Assembly: GCA_000934665.2 (NCBI GenBank) | Contig: KZ538551.1 | Span: 1-64,000 of the forward strand | Reading direction: 5' to 3' | Length of the DNA stretch: 64,000 nt | Source: Catajapyx aquilonaris | Lineage: Eukaryota | Shown here: in pieces, positions 55,116 to 63,632 of the stretch | Layout: each line of letters starts with the position of its first letter | Numbering within the stretch: position 1 is the first letter of the stretch | Notes under the pieces: generated by a model | The model's database searches: none | Told to the model about the DNA's origin: nothing | The model's input: the letters and a program-made list of their open reading frames with translations, nothing else | Made by a program: the position numbers and the translations under genes

Positions 55116-55723
55116 ACTATATTATAGTCCCTTGGAAGACGTGACCCCTCGCCATCGTCCCTCTTCTAAAAACCTGCCTGAAACCTGTCCCACTCGACAC
55201 TAATCCTTGCAGCACAATAAACTTGGGTGGGTGGTCTCGCTGGGATTGGATCGGTGCACGGGGGGAAAGGGTCGCACGTGCACTGGGATTGTTGGTGGAA
55301 GTGAAGCAACTTTGCACTGAAGAAAAAAAAACACACACACAAAAAAAACATTTATGCCACATAAAAAGAGCTACCAGCTAGATGACTGCCCCCTCTAAGC
55401 TGTCATCCTTCTCCGCTCAGCACAGCCCCCACTTACGATACCCACTTTTTTGTCAATTCAAACAACTGAAAAAATACAGTATGCGTTACTAACAGTAAGT
55501 TAGCAGTAACAAGCAGTGGGACGAAAATTGCACCCATTTTTGTAACGTTTCCAGTTAAATAGACACGAAGTTTCAACAGATTTTTAGCAGGTGTCTATTA
55601 TTTTCCCCAATTCATTTTATTTCCGTGAAATATTATTGCAGACGCTTCCAAGATACCGGTATATACAGTAACACTTCTATAAGTCGAATCTCCATGGGAC
55701 CGGAAAAAAACTTCGAGTTTTAG

Positions 55724-56326
55724 TCTGGAGGCGGACCAACGGCCTTCTGGTCCTGGTGGAGAACGGCAGCCTGGCTTCCTTCAGCATTCTGCAAGGGACT
55801 TCATCCTCCAGATGGATCCCAAGTCGCATGTGTTTGCGCCCGTAAGATGTCCTTTAGCACAGTACCGGCATGTACTGAAGCGGATTATCTCCAGTGCCCC
55901 CATGAAAAGCAGTGTCCTCGCCTGCGTGAAGACAGGACACCTTGCAACTACGAGGTTCGTTTCCAGCCGTTCAGCATGGCTGCTCAGGAGCCACCGACCC
56001 TCCGAGAATGCTTCTGTTACCTGGTGATGAAGCGAGGAGCAAGACCTGACCCTGCTCCGGGGTGGCCCAGGATGGTCCAAGAGGTTCTGAAGCGGCCCCG
56101 ACATGCAATCTGCCGCCTTTGCACAGCGCAAGGAGAACTGGCTGAAGTGGTCGTCACAGCCAAGAAGCATGGAAAGCAAGTATTTTCCGTAACAATGATT
56201 ATTCCCCGCAAGTCCAACTTACTCTCCTTGCAGGCCGACGTACAGATGCACTAAATCCAGCAAGTGGGGCGACCTTTTCCCGGCAAACTTGCTGCCATCG
56301 AAATGCAATGAAGAAGACAGTGATTA
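55724..56326 (+). pseudogene. Unidentified Cys-rich coding remnant, possibly transposon-derived
   Basis: GC-rich open frame ...CVCARK...CPHEKQCP...CRLCTAQGELAEVVVTAKKHGK. A possible GC-AG intron continues it to PTYRCTKSSKWGDLFP...EEDSD*, followed by ATTAAA/AATAAA. Confidence 0.35.
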
Positions 56327-56349
56327 AAGTGTGAAAAGGAAGTTTATTA

Positions 56350-56724
56350 ATGCCTCAAATAAAACTTGTATTTAAAAAAGGTACACGCAGTGCAAAACTT
56401 TGGGCTCTGAGGCTTGGTGATTGGCTTGGACGACTTCTCTACGATAAAACTCTTTGTACTTAGGCACAAAAGGAACAGATTTTACAGATGAGGCAGGAGA
56501 TGGTGACCAAGGCAAAGTGCCTTGGTCACCATCTCCGGCCTCATCTGTAAAATCTCTTCTCTGCGCAGCTTCACGTGCTCATCGCGCTCTTCAAAACTGA
56601 ACTGTTCAGGGCTGGGCACAGTCTTGATTGGCGGTGTTGGCTGCGAGGCCTTAACTGTGGACCTCTTTGGCTTCGTCTCCACCGGTTCTGTCTCCAGCTC
56701 CTTGGCAGCCCTGCAGTTTTGCAA
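56350..56724 (-). pseudogene. Unidentified coding remnant convergent with the previous one, disrupted by a 38-bp inverted duplication
   Basis: NCRAAKELETEPVETKPKRS...FSFEERDEHVKLRREEILQMRPEMVTKAL. The frame reopens (VPFVPKYKEFYRREVV...) when the duplicated arm is removed. A diverged inverted paralog lies at 57363-57510. Confidence 0.4.
56477..56555. repeat. Near-perfect hairpin, 38-bp arms, 3-nt loop
   Basis: AGATTTTACAGATGAGGCAGGAGATGGTGACCAAGGCA-AAG-reverse complement, with one mismatch. Confidence 0.95.
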
Positions 56725-58630
56725 TTGTAATGATCAAGTGTACATGGTTATTTTTTATGCCAACTGACATTTTCATCTGCCTGAACTTCCGCATCGATGC
56801 AAGACTCCGTTTCGGTACAGTCACAGGTGCAGCTTCTCGCCACCAGGCCTAAGCGGGCACCCTCACCTGCACCGATAACAATGTGTTAATGGGAGTACAT
56901 GATACGATAAAGTTGAAGCATACTTGATCACCGGCTCTTGAATTTCTTTGGTGTAGCGACCTGGTACTTCCTCACAGCCTCGGCCATGGACACGAAGGGT
57001 GCAGATGAGGGTGCCCGCTTAGGCCTGGTGGTGCTGGAGCCACAGCTGGAGGTCGGCTGGAGAAACGCGCTGCATACAAACCGGAACGCACCAATACCTG
57101 CATTGCCAATGAAGTGAGCCCCATTCCACGCATGGCATGAGCATGTAACGTACCTGGCGTCGTACCCCTCCTCTTCTTCTGACTAGACTGACTCCCCGAC
57201 TGGGCCGATGGCCTCATCGGCTGAGAAGACCTCGTCCGACTCGACCACATCTGGAAAAATGGAATAGTTGACCCGACATTCCAACAAAACAACGAGCGGG
57301 GTAAGACTGACCGAAGAACTCGTCCGCCCTGTCGTCGTAGCAGGGAACGAGGCCAAGTCCACGAACTGCAGGCGGGCGATCTCCTCGTAGTCCATCGAAG
57401 CCAAAGAGGTCCAGGTAAGGCCCCGCATCCAACCCCGCCAATCAGTGACCTGCCCCTGAACCATTCAGTTTTGAAGAGCGCGATAAGCACATATGAAGCT
57501 GCGCAGAGAGGCACGTGAAAAGGGGCGTTCAGACGAGGCAACTTGGTTTCAGCAGCGTGGCTGCAACCTGGCTGAAATACACGGGAGAGAATAGGAAGTG
57601 TCAGCAACCCAAAAAAATGCTTCAACTTTTCTGCAACCAGGAAACGCGCCCAATACCTGCGTTGTCAATGAGAGTGAGCCACCGCGTGGCATGGCATGAG
57701 CATGTAACGTACCTGGCGTCGTACCGAGGCGTCGTGGCGAGTCGGCAGCTCGACGGACTGACGGAGAAGGAGGGACGACGACCGTTGGCCTGAGTTTAAA
57801 TCTGATTCCCCCAGCCAATGAGGATGAGCCAGGACGACGACGGTGGGGCAGGGTTGCCAGGATATCTAACAACTCGCAGCCTGTAACCTCCCAAGGTAAC
57901 CTCCCACTTTTCAATGGGAAATGAGGGAAATGGGGTTCCCAGTTAGCATAAATGACATTTTTGAAATAATGTTGTCAGTTTATAAAACATTATTTCAAAA
58001 ATGCCATCACTTCCCCCTTATTGCAGGAGAAAAGTTATCAGAACTAGGGGAGACTGCTGAGTTGTTTCCAGAAATAGTTGACCTGGGGGCCAGCATGATT
58101 TTTTTGTGCAGCCTACAGGTCCCTCGATTGTTGAGGCCAGCTAATGTTGCTGTACTGAGTAGTTGCGTTTTGGTTAGCGCAATGCCTGTGAATTATTATT
58201 AATGCGTGGCATTGATTCTGGAGAAGTCAGTTGTGATCATTGTATTTGTCCGGTCTTGGGTATCGCATGATGGGGGAGTGTACTACACTACTACTTAACT
58301 CTGCATTTCACTCACTACATATGGAGGCGTGAAATGCGGAGTTATCACAGGGCCACTGCACACATGACAATAACCCTGCCCTTTTGACGGGTGAGATTTT
58401 AAAAGGCCACGCTTCATTTCTCCTCCCCCTCAGTCCCTGCTGGTGAGTCGTCGTTCACTGTGCAGCTTGATCAGTCATGGACTGGCGTTTGTTCTCCGTC
58501 CAACCCTCCGTCATCTGGAAGCTAATGGCACAAACATCACCACTGTCCACTGGATCACCTCGGGTATGTTTTCTCGGGTCACAGGAGGAGCTTATATTGT
58601 CACGCTGCTGACCGTGCGAAATATTTTCAG

Positions 58631-60397
58631 GCTGCCAGGACGATGATGAGTTCCACCATGATGAGGGAAGAGGAGGAGGGGGAGTGTGCTGACCGGTCAC
58701 CGTCGCATAATATTCATCCAGCAGTGGATTATGTGAACGACATTTCGCCTGTTCCAAGCGGCAGTCAACTGCGCCGACCCCTTCAGCACTCTGATGTTAT
58801 TGCTGAAGATGAACAGCTGCTGGAAATGGCTCCAAATTTACCTCCGCATCAGGCCCGCTGATGAGGGCGCTTTCAATGTAAGATTGTTTTTCTTTATTGA
58901 AACAAGGGTGTGCTTATAGCTTATTATTTTTTGCACCTTTGTTTCAGGAATCGTATTTCAAGGAGTAGTGATACCTGGTGCAGGTACTTTTGCATAAGTC
59001 TCCTTCGGCTTGACTGATATGCATGCATATCATGCATATCGGTCAAACCGAAGGGGACTTATTCAAAAGATATCAGTCAAGACGAAGGAACCTTCAAAAA
59101 TACCTGAACCACGTACAGTATAGCCTACCTCTTGGTGAGTACGAGGCCCTGGTCGGAGTCTGACCGCCTGTGTAGAGCCCACTTTAGACTAGGTTGTGTT
59201 CATATAATCAAATGGTTCTCATTTAACAGGTATACACCTTCACGAAGATCTTTGATGAGACTCTAGATCAGACTGCTTTCTTTGAGGGATGCATCATCAC
59301 AACTGTCCAGGATTTCTTACAGGCCAAGGACAGCCTGGTCTTTTCTTACGGGACAACAAATGCAGGGAAGACCCACACCATTCAAGGTAAACATATAGTG
59401 AATCAAACTCTTGAAACTGGTGATGTAATTGGACTTTGTCATTTTAGGTGTACCTGATGACATCTGTTCCTGCCACGAACAGTTGATGTCATCTTTAACT
59501 TTAACTCTATACAGAGTAACGTGGCCGAACGTGGCAAAGGAAATCAGATGGAAGCCCAAGTCCCAAGGGTTTTAGCCGAGCAGTGAAATTGGGTGAGGAT
59601 GACTCACGAAGGGAAGAGGAGAAAAATCTGGCCGCCATGCGAAACTTGCAACACATTAAGAACTGTAAGTAAAAAAATAATACCTGAAGTAGTGGATTAA
59701 ACTGGGATCTTCTGGCAGTGCCTGTGACGTGTCACTATGGGCAGTCTAGAAATGAGGTTACCTGCTCTGGTGTTATTTTTCCATGGGATGATATTAGATG
59801 GGTAATTAATTATTCCAGCCTGTTAAAGGCTCAGTAATCAACTAACTGCTGAATGGCTCAGTATCATTTTATTGGCACAGGCATTTTCATTACTACCAAA
59901 GTTCTGTTGCTTCTTGGGACCTCATGCCATTGCACTAAACGTACCATTGTTTGGAACACACTCTTGAGTTGATCAGGACAAATTCTGCCTTGGCCTGCGT
60001 TTCCCATTCCAATTTCATTTTTACTGATTGTTATATTGCAGTCTGGGGCTTTGTTTAAAAAGCCTGTGATATCTAGCCAAGACAGCCTCGCCAGTCGTAT
60101 CCCGCTACTTAGTGGAGTCCACTTTAATGGAGGAACGTCGCTGGGATGGCAGGACTCTGACTCTCTCAGGGATAGAGGCCACTACAACTTACACGACGAA
60201 TGTGTGTGTGAATGGGAAGGTCACGTAGCACTGAAGGATGTACAATATGTCTTTACAATTTGTTTCTTAATTTTAGGTTGTCATTTTGTGACTTGGCTGG
60301 AATTGAGAGAACGGAGAAGACTAGGAATGTTGGCATGCGTCTTAAGGAGACGGGAAACATCAACAATAGCTTGATGGTACTTGGCCGCTGTGTGGCC
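58631..60397 (+). pseudogene. KIF20: Kinesin-6 (KIF20A/B-like) motor-domain pseudogene; exon remnants 58631-58877, ~58948-59134, 59230-59386, 59448-59664, ~60042-60219, 60277-60397
   Basis: Motifs IYLRIRP, YTFTKIFDE, P-loop YGTTNAGKTHTIQG, LPRTVDVIFN and [11 protein letters not shown]...[18 protein letters not shown], with GT-AG splice sites. Frameshifts, a MITE insertion, no visible EIYNE/NxxSSRSH segment, and truncation at 60397. Confidence 0.85.
58974..59113. mobile_element. TA-flanked palindromic MITE inside a KIF20-like exon
   Basis: TA|CCTGGTGCAGGTACTTTTG ... CAAAAATACCTGAACCACG|TA, with an internal hairpin TTTTGCATAAGTCTCCTTCGG/CCGAAGGGGACTTATTCAAAA. Confidence 0.7.
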
Positions 60398-61098
60398 AGC
60401 AGCTAACCTCATTTCTAGACTGCCCATAGTGAAACGTCACAGGCACTGCCAGAAGATCCCAGTTTAATCCACTAACTCTAGGTATTTTTTTTTACTTACA
60501 GTTCTAATGTGTTGCAAGTTTTGCATGACGGCCAGATTTTTCTCCTCTTCCCTTTGCGAGTCATCCTCACCCAATTTCATGGCTCGGCTAAAACCCTTGG
60601 GAGCCCAAGGGATGATCAGATGGAAGCCCTTCCATCTGATTTCCTCTGCCACGTTACTCTGTATAGAGTTAAATATGACGTCAACAGTTCGTGGCAGGAT
60701 ACCAATGTCATCAGGTACACCTAAAATGACAAAGTCCAGTTACATCACCAGTTTCAAGAGTTTGATTCACTGTGTTTACCTTGAATGGTGTAGGTCTTCC
60801 CTGCATTTGTTGTGCCATAGGAGAAGACTAGGCAGTCCTTGCCCTGTAAAAAATCTTGGACAGTTGTGATGATGCATCCCTCAAAGAAAGCCATCTGATC
60901 GACAGTCTCATCTAAGATCTTGGTGAAGGTGTACAGTCGGCACGGAAATGGTAAGGACACATTGACGGTTCCAGAATCCTCAAATGTGTCCTTACCTTTT
61001 CCGTCTCCCGACTGTACCTGTTAAATGAGAACCATTAGATAATATAAACACAACCTAGTCTAAAGTGGGCTCTACACAGGCGGTCAGACTCCGACCAG
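60398..61098 (-). pseudogene. KIF20: Inverted duplicate of KIF20-like exons (60780-61017 and 60500-60720) with introns
   Basis: Reverse complement of 59149-59766. Encodes YTFTKILDE...YGTTNAGKTYTIQG|VPDDIGILPRTVDVIFNSIQ. Interrupted by a MITE at 60934-61014. Confidence 0.9.
60934..61014. mobile_element. 81-bp Tc1/mariner-type MITE, TA-flanked
   Basis: TA|CAGTCGG...AAGGACACATT / AATGTGTCCTT...CCGACTG|TA. Absent from the paralogous arm at ~59231. Confidence 0.85.
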
Positions 61099-61200
61099 AT
61101 TCGACCATTGGCTGGAGTGATTATGAACTGTATATGTGTTTCATGGTTATGCCCCATCTTGCATTTTTCTATGGGAATAGCGGCCTGTTTTGATGTGACA

Positions 61201-61265
61201 GTTGACTCCAATTGGCTGGTAGTACAGAGCCCAGGCCTGTACTACTACAGCCAATTGGAGTCGAC
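61201..61265. repeat. 65-nt hairpin
   Basis: GTTGACTCCAATTGGCTGGTAGTACAG / CTGTACTACTACAGCCAATTGGAGTCGAC. Confidence 0.8.
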
Positions 61266-62250
61266 CTGAAGCGAGAGGTTGGCGACTCTTCCTGGAGATT
61301 CTCTAATGTGAACTAGTTTTTTTTTCCCCCATGATTTCATGTTGTGAAGCCAAGTAAGAGTGACTGTTGAAACAACTGGATTGGCTCCTAAATTGGCTCT
61401 TAAAATTCATTTTATCTTTTCTCAAATTTTTATACTTCTCTTTTCAATGTGTGGGATTATGAATAACATGTGTAAACAAGCTGTTTTTCTCTGCAACTTT
61501 TCAAATAAAATACAGTATTTGTCACAAGTCCTTTGTACATTTATTATTTGTACTGTACATCACAGGAATCTTCCTTCAGTAATTAAAGCATACAAAATGA
61601 GGACACTTGAAACAGGAAGGTAGTCACTGATTAAACTGACTAAACGCATTTCAAGTCAAGACTTACGTGGCGCGCACACAAAGTAACCACTCTGCCTAGT
61701 TACAAGACTACAGGACAATTCAACCCATTTTTATTGTCCTACTAGGCACAAAATCGTAAAATGCATTGTCATACAAACATTGTGTCCAATATATTGTGCG
61801 CGCTGTAACAATCATGATTATTGAGCTATGTGCCATTATGGAATGGAATTATGGATGGACTCTTCGTTGGATGTCCGCAATTTCTGATGTACAATCAGCC
61901 AAATATTATTGCCGAGTTTTGTCACATTCATTGCACACACCATGCATGTCTCTTGCCACACACTGGTTTGTCACTCATCGCAGCTATGAAAGAATGAGGC
62001 TTCATAACAATATGGAACAACACATGAGGGTTTGGCCTTTTATATTTTGAGCATAACTTTGCCTGCTAGTCGTCTCCACTCCAAAATGAGAGAGAATTAT
62101 ATGCAAACCTGTAGGAAACCAAACCACACCCGCTGGCATTTACATTTATCTGGTACATTTATTCCACATAGAACAAGTCATAAATATATTTTACTCAACA
62201 CGCATGTATTGTAAACATAATTCCATCTGAAACCTCTACTCACAGCCCAT

Positions 62251-63279
62251 TCATACGTATACCTTGTCAATTATGTGTGTCACACATTGCCTGCAAATGG
62301 GGCATGTAGTTATGGGCATCATGGATTGGAGGCACTGACTACACAAGCAAAAGTGCTTGCAGGGTAAAAGAATAGCTGCTTTAGGCTCTGATTGACAAAT
62401 AACACATGTCAGTTCGTCATGATCTCCAGAATGCTCTTTTATACTTTCTGCCGGCCTCTTCATTAACTCTGTCAACCGTTTCCAGGCTGCAAATGGCGCG
62501 TTAATTGTCCAGGTTGCCCATCGCAGCATGGAAACCCAAAAGCGGATCCGCATCATAATCCACATTATCACTGTGAGTAAGACCAGGCCTGTGTACGTTC
62601 CTGGTGGGGTGTCCATAAAAAAAGTCATCATGGACATCACCATTGAGGACAATAAGGACATGATGCCAAACACAGATCCGATGGCCACATTCGCCAGAGT
62701 TAGGGCGACTTTGGCAACAGTGACAAGAACATATCTGGTGATGTAGTACGGAACGAATGGCAGATAGGAGACTCCTGTGTAAACGCTGGTTCCGAGCAGC
62801 ACCATAGAGGCTCGGAGGAGGATGAAAGGTGCCAACACCACCGACTTCAGGAAGGCCAGGAGGTCCAGCACGGAGAGGCCAACCTGCAGAATGTAATGTG
62901 TTACATCTCACGTATACGAAGGTTAGACAGCATGTAAGTGCGCTGATCTCACCTGGCCGGAAATCTCAACTGTAGTACCCAACGCCAACATAACAGACTC
63001 TCCCATCAGGTGGCACAGGCTATCCATGATCCTGACCACTGCCGCAACCCGTCCTCCAAGCTCCACCGCAAACGAGACAAACTCCTCGATCAAGACTCCA
63101 ACTCCCATCAGCACGTCAGCCATCCCCATGACCACCCCTCTAATGAGGGTGGCCACAATGGTCACGATGCCCTCCCCCACCACATTGCTATAAAATATCA
63201 GCAGGACGCCTCCGATCCACGTATTCTCCAGCACCGACTGCACCAGTCCGCTCACCAACTGCAACACTCCCACCACCAT
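62251..63279 (-). CDS. RNF26: RNF26-like multi-pass membrane RING E3 ubiquitin ligase; join(62953..63279, 62251..62883), 319 aa
   Basis: Two adjacent ORFs are joined in frame by a GT-AG intron (donor CAG|gtgag, acceptor ttctgcag|GTT). Long hydrophobic N-terminal region. C-terminal RING CVICQSEPKAAILLPCKHFCLCSQC...CPICRQCVTHIIDKVYV matches the RNF26 architecture as I recall it. Confidence 0.85.
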
Positions 63280-63384
63280 CGTCGTCGTCTGGTCGCCCTG
63301 CAACGTAATTATCATTAGAAAAGTACTGATGGAACCAGATGGAACTGTCAGCTATAAACTTAACGAATTAACATCATTACGCAC

Positions 63385-63632
63385 ATAATGTATTGCATGT
63401 TATGTATTACATTACTATGTACACATTACATGTTATGTACTGTACAGCATGTATTACATGTTATGTACTGAGTACTGTACAGCATGTATTACATGTTATG
63501 TACTGAGTACTGTACAGCATGTATTACATGTTATGTACTGAGTACTGTACAGCATGTATTACATGTTATGTACAGTGACTTACATGTTATGTACAGCATG
63601 TGTTACATGCAGCATTATGTTATGTACAGTAT
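63385..63632. repeat. 35-bp minisatellite in the first RNF26-like intron
   Basis: TACTGTACAGCATGTATTACATGTTATGTACTGAG repeated ~4 times with degenerate flanks. Confidence 0.95.

Follow-up and report, generated by a model that had tools for sequence, protein, structure and literature searches.

A 64,000-nucleotide stretch of the Catajapyx aquilonaris genome (positions 1–64000 of contig KZ538551.1, here C982), hereafter the window, to which all coordinates without a contig prefix refer, was analysed together with the rest of the 285.6-Mb assembly, whose other contigs are likewise given C numbers. Near its right end lies a pseudogene of a KIF20-like kinesin folded into a long inverted repeat, and back to back with it stands a second relic, derived from TPX2, which also carries an exon-derived hairpin and is new to the present analysis. 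The structure is real and unusual. An earlier, sequence-only reading of the window had described the KIF20 part and proposed it as a source of hairpin RNA against a cell-division kinesin.

The KIF20 inverted repeat and its parent gene

The KIF20 relic (58354–60396) was identified as a genomic copy of C676:45061–39741, which is the sole other long DNA match to it in the genome. The parent gene was modelled with nine exons bounded by GT–AG and encoding 802 residues without a stop, its 3′ exons being modelled incompletely, and it is the intact parental KIF20 that the sequence-only reading presupposed. The best PDB matches of its exon 5 were KIF20A (E 3.5e-18, against 2.8e-13 for the next family), and those homologs that bear a gene name were KIF20A, KIF20B or subito, at 40–55% identity. 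Kinesin-6 motors have a long loop-6 insertion, with which the ~114 residues found between Pfam positions 93 and 121 of the C676 motor are consistent. Sequence comparison thus assigns the parent to kinesin-6, of the KIF20A/subito type. The relic retains introns and carries disabling lesions while its parent keeps an open frame elsewhere, which makes it an unprocessed pseudogene and bears out the earlier view of a KIF20-like gene duplicated at the DNA level. A second, older KIF20-like gene was located on C1552 (protein identity 54–62%).

Self-BLAST aligned 59233–59766 with 60933–60398 (87.4% identity over 548 columns, E 9e-174) and 59149–59232 with 61098–61015 (96.4% identity), the gap between the two pieces corresponding to an 81-bp miniature inverted-repeat transposable element (MITE) in the right arm; at the same site, the left arm has only a doubled TA. 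The arms had been read from the letters as reverse complements spanning 59149–59766 and 60398–61098, which holds with the MITE as an interruption and with the right arm extending to 61111. In a three-way alignment with the parent, the arms so delimited yielded 555 complementary and 43 mismatched columns, with 16 perfect arm–arm pairing runs of 15–52 nt, and 37 of the 587 gap-free columns (6.3%) differed between them. This alignment likewise placed the P-loop exon (exon 3), exon 4 and their introns in the arms, and the DLAGxER exon (exon 6), truncated by the inversion junction, in the loop, all as previously described; in addition, ~155 nt from the 5′ end of exon 5 lie in the loop, the rest of this exon being deleted. 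The left arm has accumulated frame lesions (the TA footprint, −1, +6, +10, +7 and +1), and the two exons of the right arm are open save for the MITE. In a transcript from the plus strand, the right arm would be antisense to the parent mRNA. For a 2,051-nt stretch, the predicted fold contained 567 (plus strand) or 571 (minus strand) inter-arm pairs with minimum free energies of −1269 and −1220 kcal/mol, compared with only −553 to −585 kcal/mol for four mononucleotide shuffles.

The outer junction at 61111 was bridged with 0 differences by a contig spanning 61069–63400 from a DNA run of the same sample, and it was found exactly, again with 0 differences, in a second sample. A short-read contig (59701–60069) bridged the border between left arm and loop, and the deletion at 59149 was also contig-bridged, although one side of it is covered by just 30 letters. 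For the inner junction at 60397, bridging is probable from the depth of window-type sequence in run X2, which is 28.0 at 60366 and again at 60440. Each arm further has its private lesions, as the sequence-only reading had noted, and the inverted repeat is genuine and not an assembly mirror. The features of the locus are collected in the table.

Table. Features of the KIF20/TPX2 locus in window coordinates
Feature	Position	Strand	Contents and remarks
METTL17/Rsm22 3′ end	55724–56397	+	Co-duplicated with TPX2 from C1477
TPX2 relic	56394–57861	−	Parent on C1477, PF06886; opposite in orientation to the KIF20 relic and ~500 bp upstream of it
TPX2 exon-7-derived fold-back	56473–56559	.	42-bp arms, 3-nt loop; common to the partial copy C12976
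TPX2-relic exon	57312–57571	−	Bounded by AG...GT; X5 contig with 0 differences, depth 7.6; carries the inverted TPX2 arm
Inverted TPX2 exon 6 copy	57396–57527	+	Just before the relic ATG; pairs with 56555–56675 (104 predicted pairs)
KIF20 relic, 5′ part	58354–59151	+	Untranslated/promoter-proximal DNA, exon 1 (ATG ~58643, frameshifted), exon 2
Exon-2-derived short fold-back	58976–59075	+	~44-bp stem, 4-nt loop, −59 kcal/mol; size of a microRNA precursor
Left arm	59149–59766	+	End of intron 2, exon 3 (59230–59386, P-loop), intron 3, exon 4 (59448–59664), start of intron 4
Loop	59767–60397	+	Intron 4 pieces, 5′ remnant of exon 5 (60042–60195), end of intron 5, exon 6 (60277–60396, DLAGIER)
Right arm	60398–61111	−	Same parent interval (C676:42783–43386) in inverted orientation
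Palindromic MITE	60934–61014	.	81 bp, at TA where exon 3 of the right arm begins; many genomic copies
RING-finger gene (RNF26-like)	61774–63351	−	Converges on the right arm; exact X5 contigs 61774–62746 and 63066–63297

Several side observations were made on the two KIF20-like genes. The Ser of the DLAGSER motif is replaced in both, giving DLAGIER (C676:39860–39732) and DLAGMER (C1552:24410–24294); at this position, 26 homologs have Ser (24), Ala (1) or Thr (1). Introns of the parent contain insertions with inverted ends (C676:44450–43923, 42733–42234 and 42103–41341), for which the relic keeps empty sites. An AT-rich palindrome of ~800 bp (91%) is found at C1552:12774–13579, with the second KIF20-like gene ~10 kb away.

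The adjoining TPX2 relic and transcription

Interval 55724–57861 is a decayed copy of C1477:44612–47381, which comprises the METTL17/Rsm22 3′ end and TPX2. The TPX2 parent on C1477 has a 504-aa open frame and is the only PF06886 locus found. Introns of the TPX2 relic diverge at 30/216 positions (14%), compared with 41/612 (6–7%) for the KIF20 relic, and the TPX2 relic looks the older of the two. Its inverted arm measures ~130 bp and its arms are ~80% complementary; it has two smaller fold-backs besides, and the two relics together hold five exon-derived fold-backs in ~4.7 kb. Among other TPX2 copies, neither the intronless, frameshifted retrocopy at C223:113764–114932 nor the old METTL17–TPX2 segmental copy at C1841:18131–19209 contains an exon-derived inverted repeat; C12976 holds a partial copy 95% identical to that of the window.

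As to promoters, the TPX2 relic keeps CCAAT, TTTAAA and CCGTTG motifs at 57782–57819, to which we presumptively ascribe a cell-cycle role. The KIF20 relic carries only ~380 bp from upstream of the parent ATG, and the two motifs therein that we take to be Myb-type are both mutated; the former KIF20 promoter, which the sequence-only reading had named as the driver, is therefore doubtful in this role. Alternatives are the adjacent TPX2-relic promoter and read-through from the RING-finger gene, which we take to be RNF26.

Five sequencing runs were available, none of them recorded as RNA, and four were compared with the locus; their contigs give no strand. Run X5 is RNA-like, in that some of its pieces end at splice sites and it shows a 54-nt skip that none of the DNA runs has. 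The exact, AG/GT-bounded X5 piece at 57312–57571 shows that RNA is made from the TPX2 relic and undergoes splicing, with the antisense arm inside the spliced exon. Parent alleles of KIF20 exon 6 are present in X5, and the C676 parent appears to be expressed. The RING-finger gene, one intron of which contains a 35-bp tandem repeat (63420–63594), is a possible source of read-through toward the right arm. Between this arm and the 3′ end of the RING-finger gene, X5 has exact low-depth pieces at 60902–61222 and 61307–61493, which could be read-through or DNA carry-over; as a weak measure, contig depth was 2.7–3.4 on the KIF20 side versus 16 for RNF26. Among the pieces listed, none crosses both KIF20 arms or both TPX2 arms. 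The share of query words found in X5 was 0.15, versus 0.081 explained by the listed contig plus the parent mRNA (p 1e-4), which hints at a further, unlisted exact piece within 58372–58933. Positions 58934–60057 and 60620–60900 have no cover in X5, which was counted as evidence neither way.

Two candidate signals were discarded: the X5 depth at 60058–60619 fits the parent exon-6 contig instead of relic RNA, and A>G/T>C differences near 55.9–56.1 kb, considered as adenosine-to-inosine editing, occur in the DNA runs too and are paralog differences. The X5 piece at 60902–61222 has no such differences.

Further observations concern the flank. The METTL17 fragment differs from the expressed copy by eight listed changes, all of which are A/G or T/C transitions, with a pN/pS of 0.2 on 14 changes. 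A very high-copy repeat near 55496–55723 adjoins the duplicated block on its left, and the window from 1 to 55700 contains three N gaps and several inverted repeats of 60–125 bp. Left of 55.7 kb, none of 114 open frames of at least 82 aa, selected to be free of X and low complexity, matched Pfam.

Targeting potential and silent-site divergence

The 21-mers of the right arm (n = 694, intron and MITE included) were compared with parent exons 1–6, giving 22 perfect, 41 one-mismatch and 59 two-mismatch matches, whereas the best matches to the paralog on C1552 had two mismatches. Right arm and parent have an identical run of 86 nt (permutation p 4e-4 under a uniform null), which takes in both the P-loop, a conserved element, and a short intron. 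Of the ~600 bp of double-stranded RNA against the parent that had been proposed, the pairing and matching stand, as a predicted ~570-bp duplex with those perfect 21-mers, and the transcription across both arms stays hypothetical, no listed piece spanning them. G–U wobbles showed no strand bias (11 on the plus versus 14 on the minus strand, p = 0.69), so that a signature of selection on pairing is absent. The genome has six Dicer_dimer places, on C2162, C3072, C6020 and C2018, with three on one contig, which suggests an expanded Dicer family. In Rfam, the 12 matches to 54–64 kb all scored far below gathering thresholds. By its target, the locus does not fit a meiotic-drive suppressor of the Nmy/Tmy type, its sole close DNA match being one conserved gene and the second KIF20-like gene going unmatched by the 21-mers of the arm. 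As background, seven alignments of long inverted repeats with arms of at least 300 bp were counted in 333,458 bases of a repeat-biased set, five redundant loci being omitted.

Silent differences from the parent are concentrated in the exons under the arms: exons 3–4 have 23/76 in the left arm and 21/76 in the right arm, compared with 14/136 in exons 1, 2, 5 and 6 (p 5e-4 and 2e-3), and silent divergence is heterogeneous across the six exons (p 0.006). Replacement rates are alike in arm and other exons (11–12%), the arm introns differ from the parent at 14/220 and 12/220 positions, and changes private to one arm are rich in silent ones (13/22, p 1e-4 to 2e-3). With C1552 as outgroup, the differences common to both arms side with the copy at 16 and with the parent at 5 sites (p 0.027; 16 uninformative), the corresponding splits being 6:13 for arm-private sites and 1:4 for loop exon 6, a pattern that points to changes on the parent branch. 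In TPX2, the parent branch has 5/27.5 silent changes under the arm versus 5/94 elsewhere (p 0.049, tested after the idea was formed), and the outgroup and relic branches are likewise 1.7–1.9 times faster under the arm. C1552 is near saturation, with third positions differing in 28/51 same-residue codons, and silent sites alone split 8:3 (p 0.23). At the amino-acid level, polarisation with 23 of 26 homologs gave 10 sites in favour of the parent against 6 in favour of the copy, contrary to an acceleration of the parent branch. Exons 1–2 are also more diverged than introns. The silent excess under the arms is real in these alignments.

Two suggestions were rejected. CpG decay, considered as the source of the exon excess, accounts for only 12/128 exon differences. 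The H/Y difference in GKTxTIQG is no proof of a parent-to-arm conversion, given that Y is the consensus (13/15 matching homologs; 11/26 lacked the pattern) and the left-arm H the derived state.

Origin, rival readings and known systems

Over the 587 gap-free columns, the left arm diverges from the parent by 12.4% and the right arm by 11.2%, with 49 differences common to both. The arms are thus nearer to each other than to the parent, and with these shared differences the inversion is placed inside the copy. The doubled, frameshifting TA of the MITE site is present in both arms, and exon 4 is lesioned at one point in both, with insertions that differ, the right-arm one being pieced together from short stretches of its own flanks in inverted orientation. 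From this shared site and the shared TA, we infer that the disabling of the copy preceded the break repair or template switching by which the inverted arm was built.

We consider it about an even chance (roughly 50%) that the locus is a decaying, repair-born pseudogene hairpin resembling hairpin RNA (hpRNA) loci, with a low and probably incidental, unselected output, since the decaying arms bear no pairing signature and long inverted repeats abound in the sequence examined; the breakage of the duplex by private indels and the MITE was also counted in favour, as were the closeness of the arms to each other, the loss of the Myb-type motifs, the low X5 depth on the KIF20 side and the six Dicer_dimer places. 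On this account, a genomic segment with the first six exons of the KIF20-like gene was duplicated next to the older TPX2/METTL17 relic, as the alignments show. The copy, disabled by the TA-MITE in exon 3 and the lesion in exon 4, would then have had ~600 bp laid back inverted by local break repair or template switching, which would have cut exon 6, and the four smaller fold-backs would stem from the same process. Transcription would start at the TPX2-type promoter region that the relic retains, arrive by RNF26 read-through, or both, as observed on the TPX2 side and presumed on the KIF20 side. A transcript over both arms would fold into the ~570-bp duplex and be cut by Dicer into small interfering RNAs (siRNAs), a minority of which may match the C676 mRNA well enough for slight trimming. 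These siRNAs would be a by-product of arms that are drifting apart. Several observations weigh against this account: the two adjacent relics, unlike in age, both derive from spindle genes and have exon-derived inverted arms, which the C223 and C1841 copies lack; the TPX2 inverted arm sits in a spliced exon; and the arm exons show their silent excess, silent-rich private changes and the 86-nt identical run. Neutral decay accounts for none of these patterns.

The main rival is a selected, bidirectional hpRNA locus, in which one promoter region would drive the TPX2 hairpin to the left and the KIF20 hairpin to the right, and endogenous siRNAs (endo-siRNAs) would adjust the dose of two proteins of the spindle in the germline or in dividing cells. 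The head-to-head layout, the clustering of the fold-backs, the spliced RNA with a TPX2 antisense arm, the perfect 21-mers to C676 with none under two mismatches to C1552, the 86-nt identity in the antisense arm and the X5 word excess with its hint of an exact contig favour this possibility. It also has a precedent in mouse oocytes, whose endo-siRNAs are predicted to act against the spindle and cell-division genes Kif4, Kifc1, Prc1, Rangap1 and Hmmr (PMC6555462). Yet wobble bias is absent, duplex-breaking indels are many, the TPX2 arms are only ~80% complementary, no listed piece covers both arms of either hairpin, the KIF20-side Myb-type motifs are lost and local inverted copies are apparently common in the genome, so that we hold this reading to be tentative and clearly the less probable.

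The remaining readings fare worse. That the hairpin is the relic of a genetic conflict, having once strongly silenced the spindle kinesin, either selfishly or against a driving paralog, until the parent escaped by synonymous changes in the targeted exons, is unlikely. The silent excess in exons 3–4, the 16:5 polarisation, the TPX2 test and a precedent for target-site escape in maize Tdr1 (PMC11390486) speak for it, but the pattern was found post hoc with a near-saturated outgroup, silent sites alone and amino acids do not follow, all TPX2 branches are faster under the arm, and exons 1–2 also exceed introns; moreover, silencing the hairpin promoter would probably be an easier escape. We give similarly little credence to a two-way hairpin locus built from separately captured spindle genes, with strong siRNAs past or present and synonymous escape in the targeted exons of both parents. 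Inverted working KIF20 duplicates, or a gene-conversion mosaic, fused by a central deletion and devoid of any RNA role, would explain the silent-rich private changes, the right-arm exons open save for the MITE and the exon 1 indels, 6/7 of which are in frame as the alignment is read; they are made improbable by the frameshifting TA site common to both arms, a pN/pS near 1 in the loop exons, and arm introns that differ from each other by only 4%, well under the silent rate. Lastly, accumulation of cell-division gene copies of the B-chromosome type, or an assembly artefact, might be suspected, given that grasshopper B chromosomes carry KIF20A and other cell-division genes (PMC5377258) and that the junctions are known from short reads. 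Against this, one 2,398-nt contig links the right arm with the expressed single-copy RING-finger gene, depth in one sample is 23–33 over the relic, close to the 33.5 of that gene, the arms have private lesions and the outer junction recurs without a difference in the second sample, which leaves a very slim chance.

The locus could produce silencing RNAs against both working genes, a function that is predicted from sequence. If siRNAs are made, they would extend pseudogene-based RNA interference (RNAi) against spindle genes beyond flies and mice, with two targets from one promoter region, and would parallel the mouse oocyte, where endo-siRNAs have spindle genes among their targets. If the silent excess reflects escape, it would provide a sequence-only signature for spotting past RNAi conflicts. 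If neither is true, the locus is a commonplace decayed duplicate, in keeping with a genome rich in local inverted copies. In the literature searched, which included few subscription papers and was represented by excerpts, neither a paired TPX2/KIF20 hairpin locus nor a silent-site escape from an animal hpRNA was encountered.

Among known systems, Drosophila hpRNA loci such as D. simulans hp58 and the hpRNA formed by a 5′ partial duplication of ballchen (PMC10317233) are alike in having an exon-fragment inverted repeat and a conserved parent, in originating from a 5′ partial duplication and in that they could borrow an existing transcription unit. What defines them is the derepression of their targets and siRNAs that depend on Dcr-2 (PMC10317233), whereas the present locus is known from sequence and RNA-like contigs; unlike them, it keeps arm introns, diverges from its parent by 11–12% and has a second hairpin relic head to head. 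The KIF20 locus has the structural features of an hpRNA, namely a target-derived fold-back and predicted antisense 21-mers to an apparently expressed target, and is a candidate for the class. Duplications by fold-back or template switching (PMC10710096, PMC10622511) resemble the locus in their local inverted copies of tens to hundreds of bases and in short templated inversions at lesions, but this model does not predict the adjacent spindle relics, the spliced antisense arm or the silent excess. Teosinte Pollen Drive (Tpd1/Tdr1, PMC11390486), with a hairpin against an essential gene and target-site escape, serves as the model for the escape reading; it differs in using a plant 22-nt Dcl2 pathway, in its proven drive and in an escape via an in-frame deletion plus a single-nucleotide polymorphism. 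Mouse oocyte pseudogene loci (Au76/Rangap1, PMC6223193; PMC6555462; PMC4335007) involve a mammalian pathway, measured siRNAs and pseudogene–parent duplexes (PMC6223193), as opposed to the intron-containing fold-back read here from sequence, and they are alike in that a pseudogene ~90% identical to its parent is set against spindle and cell-division targets.

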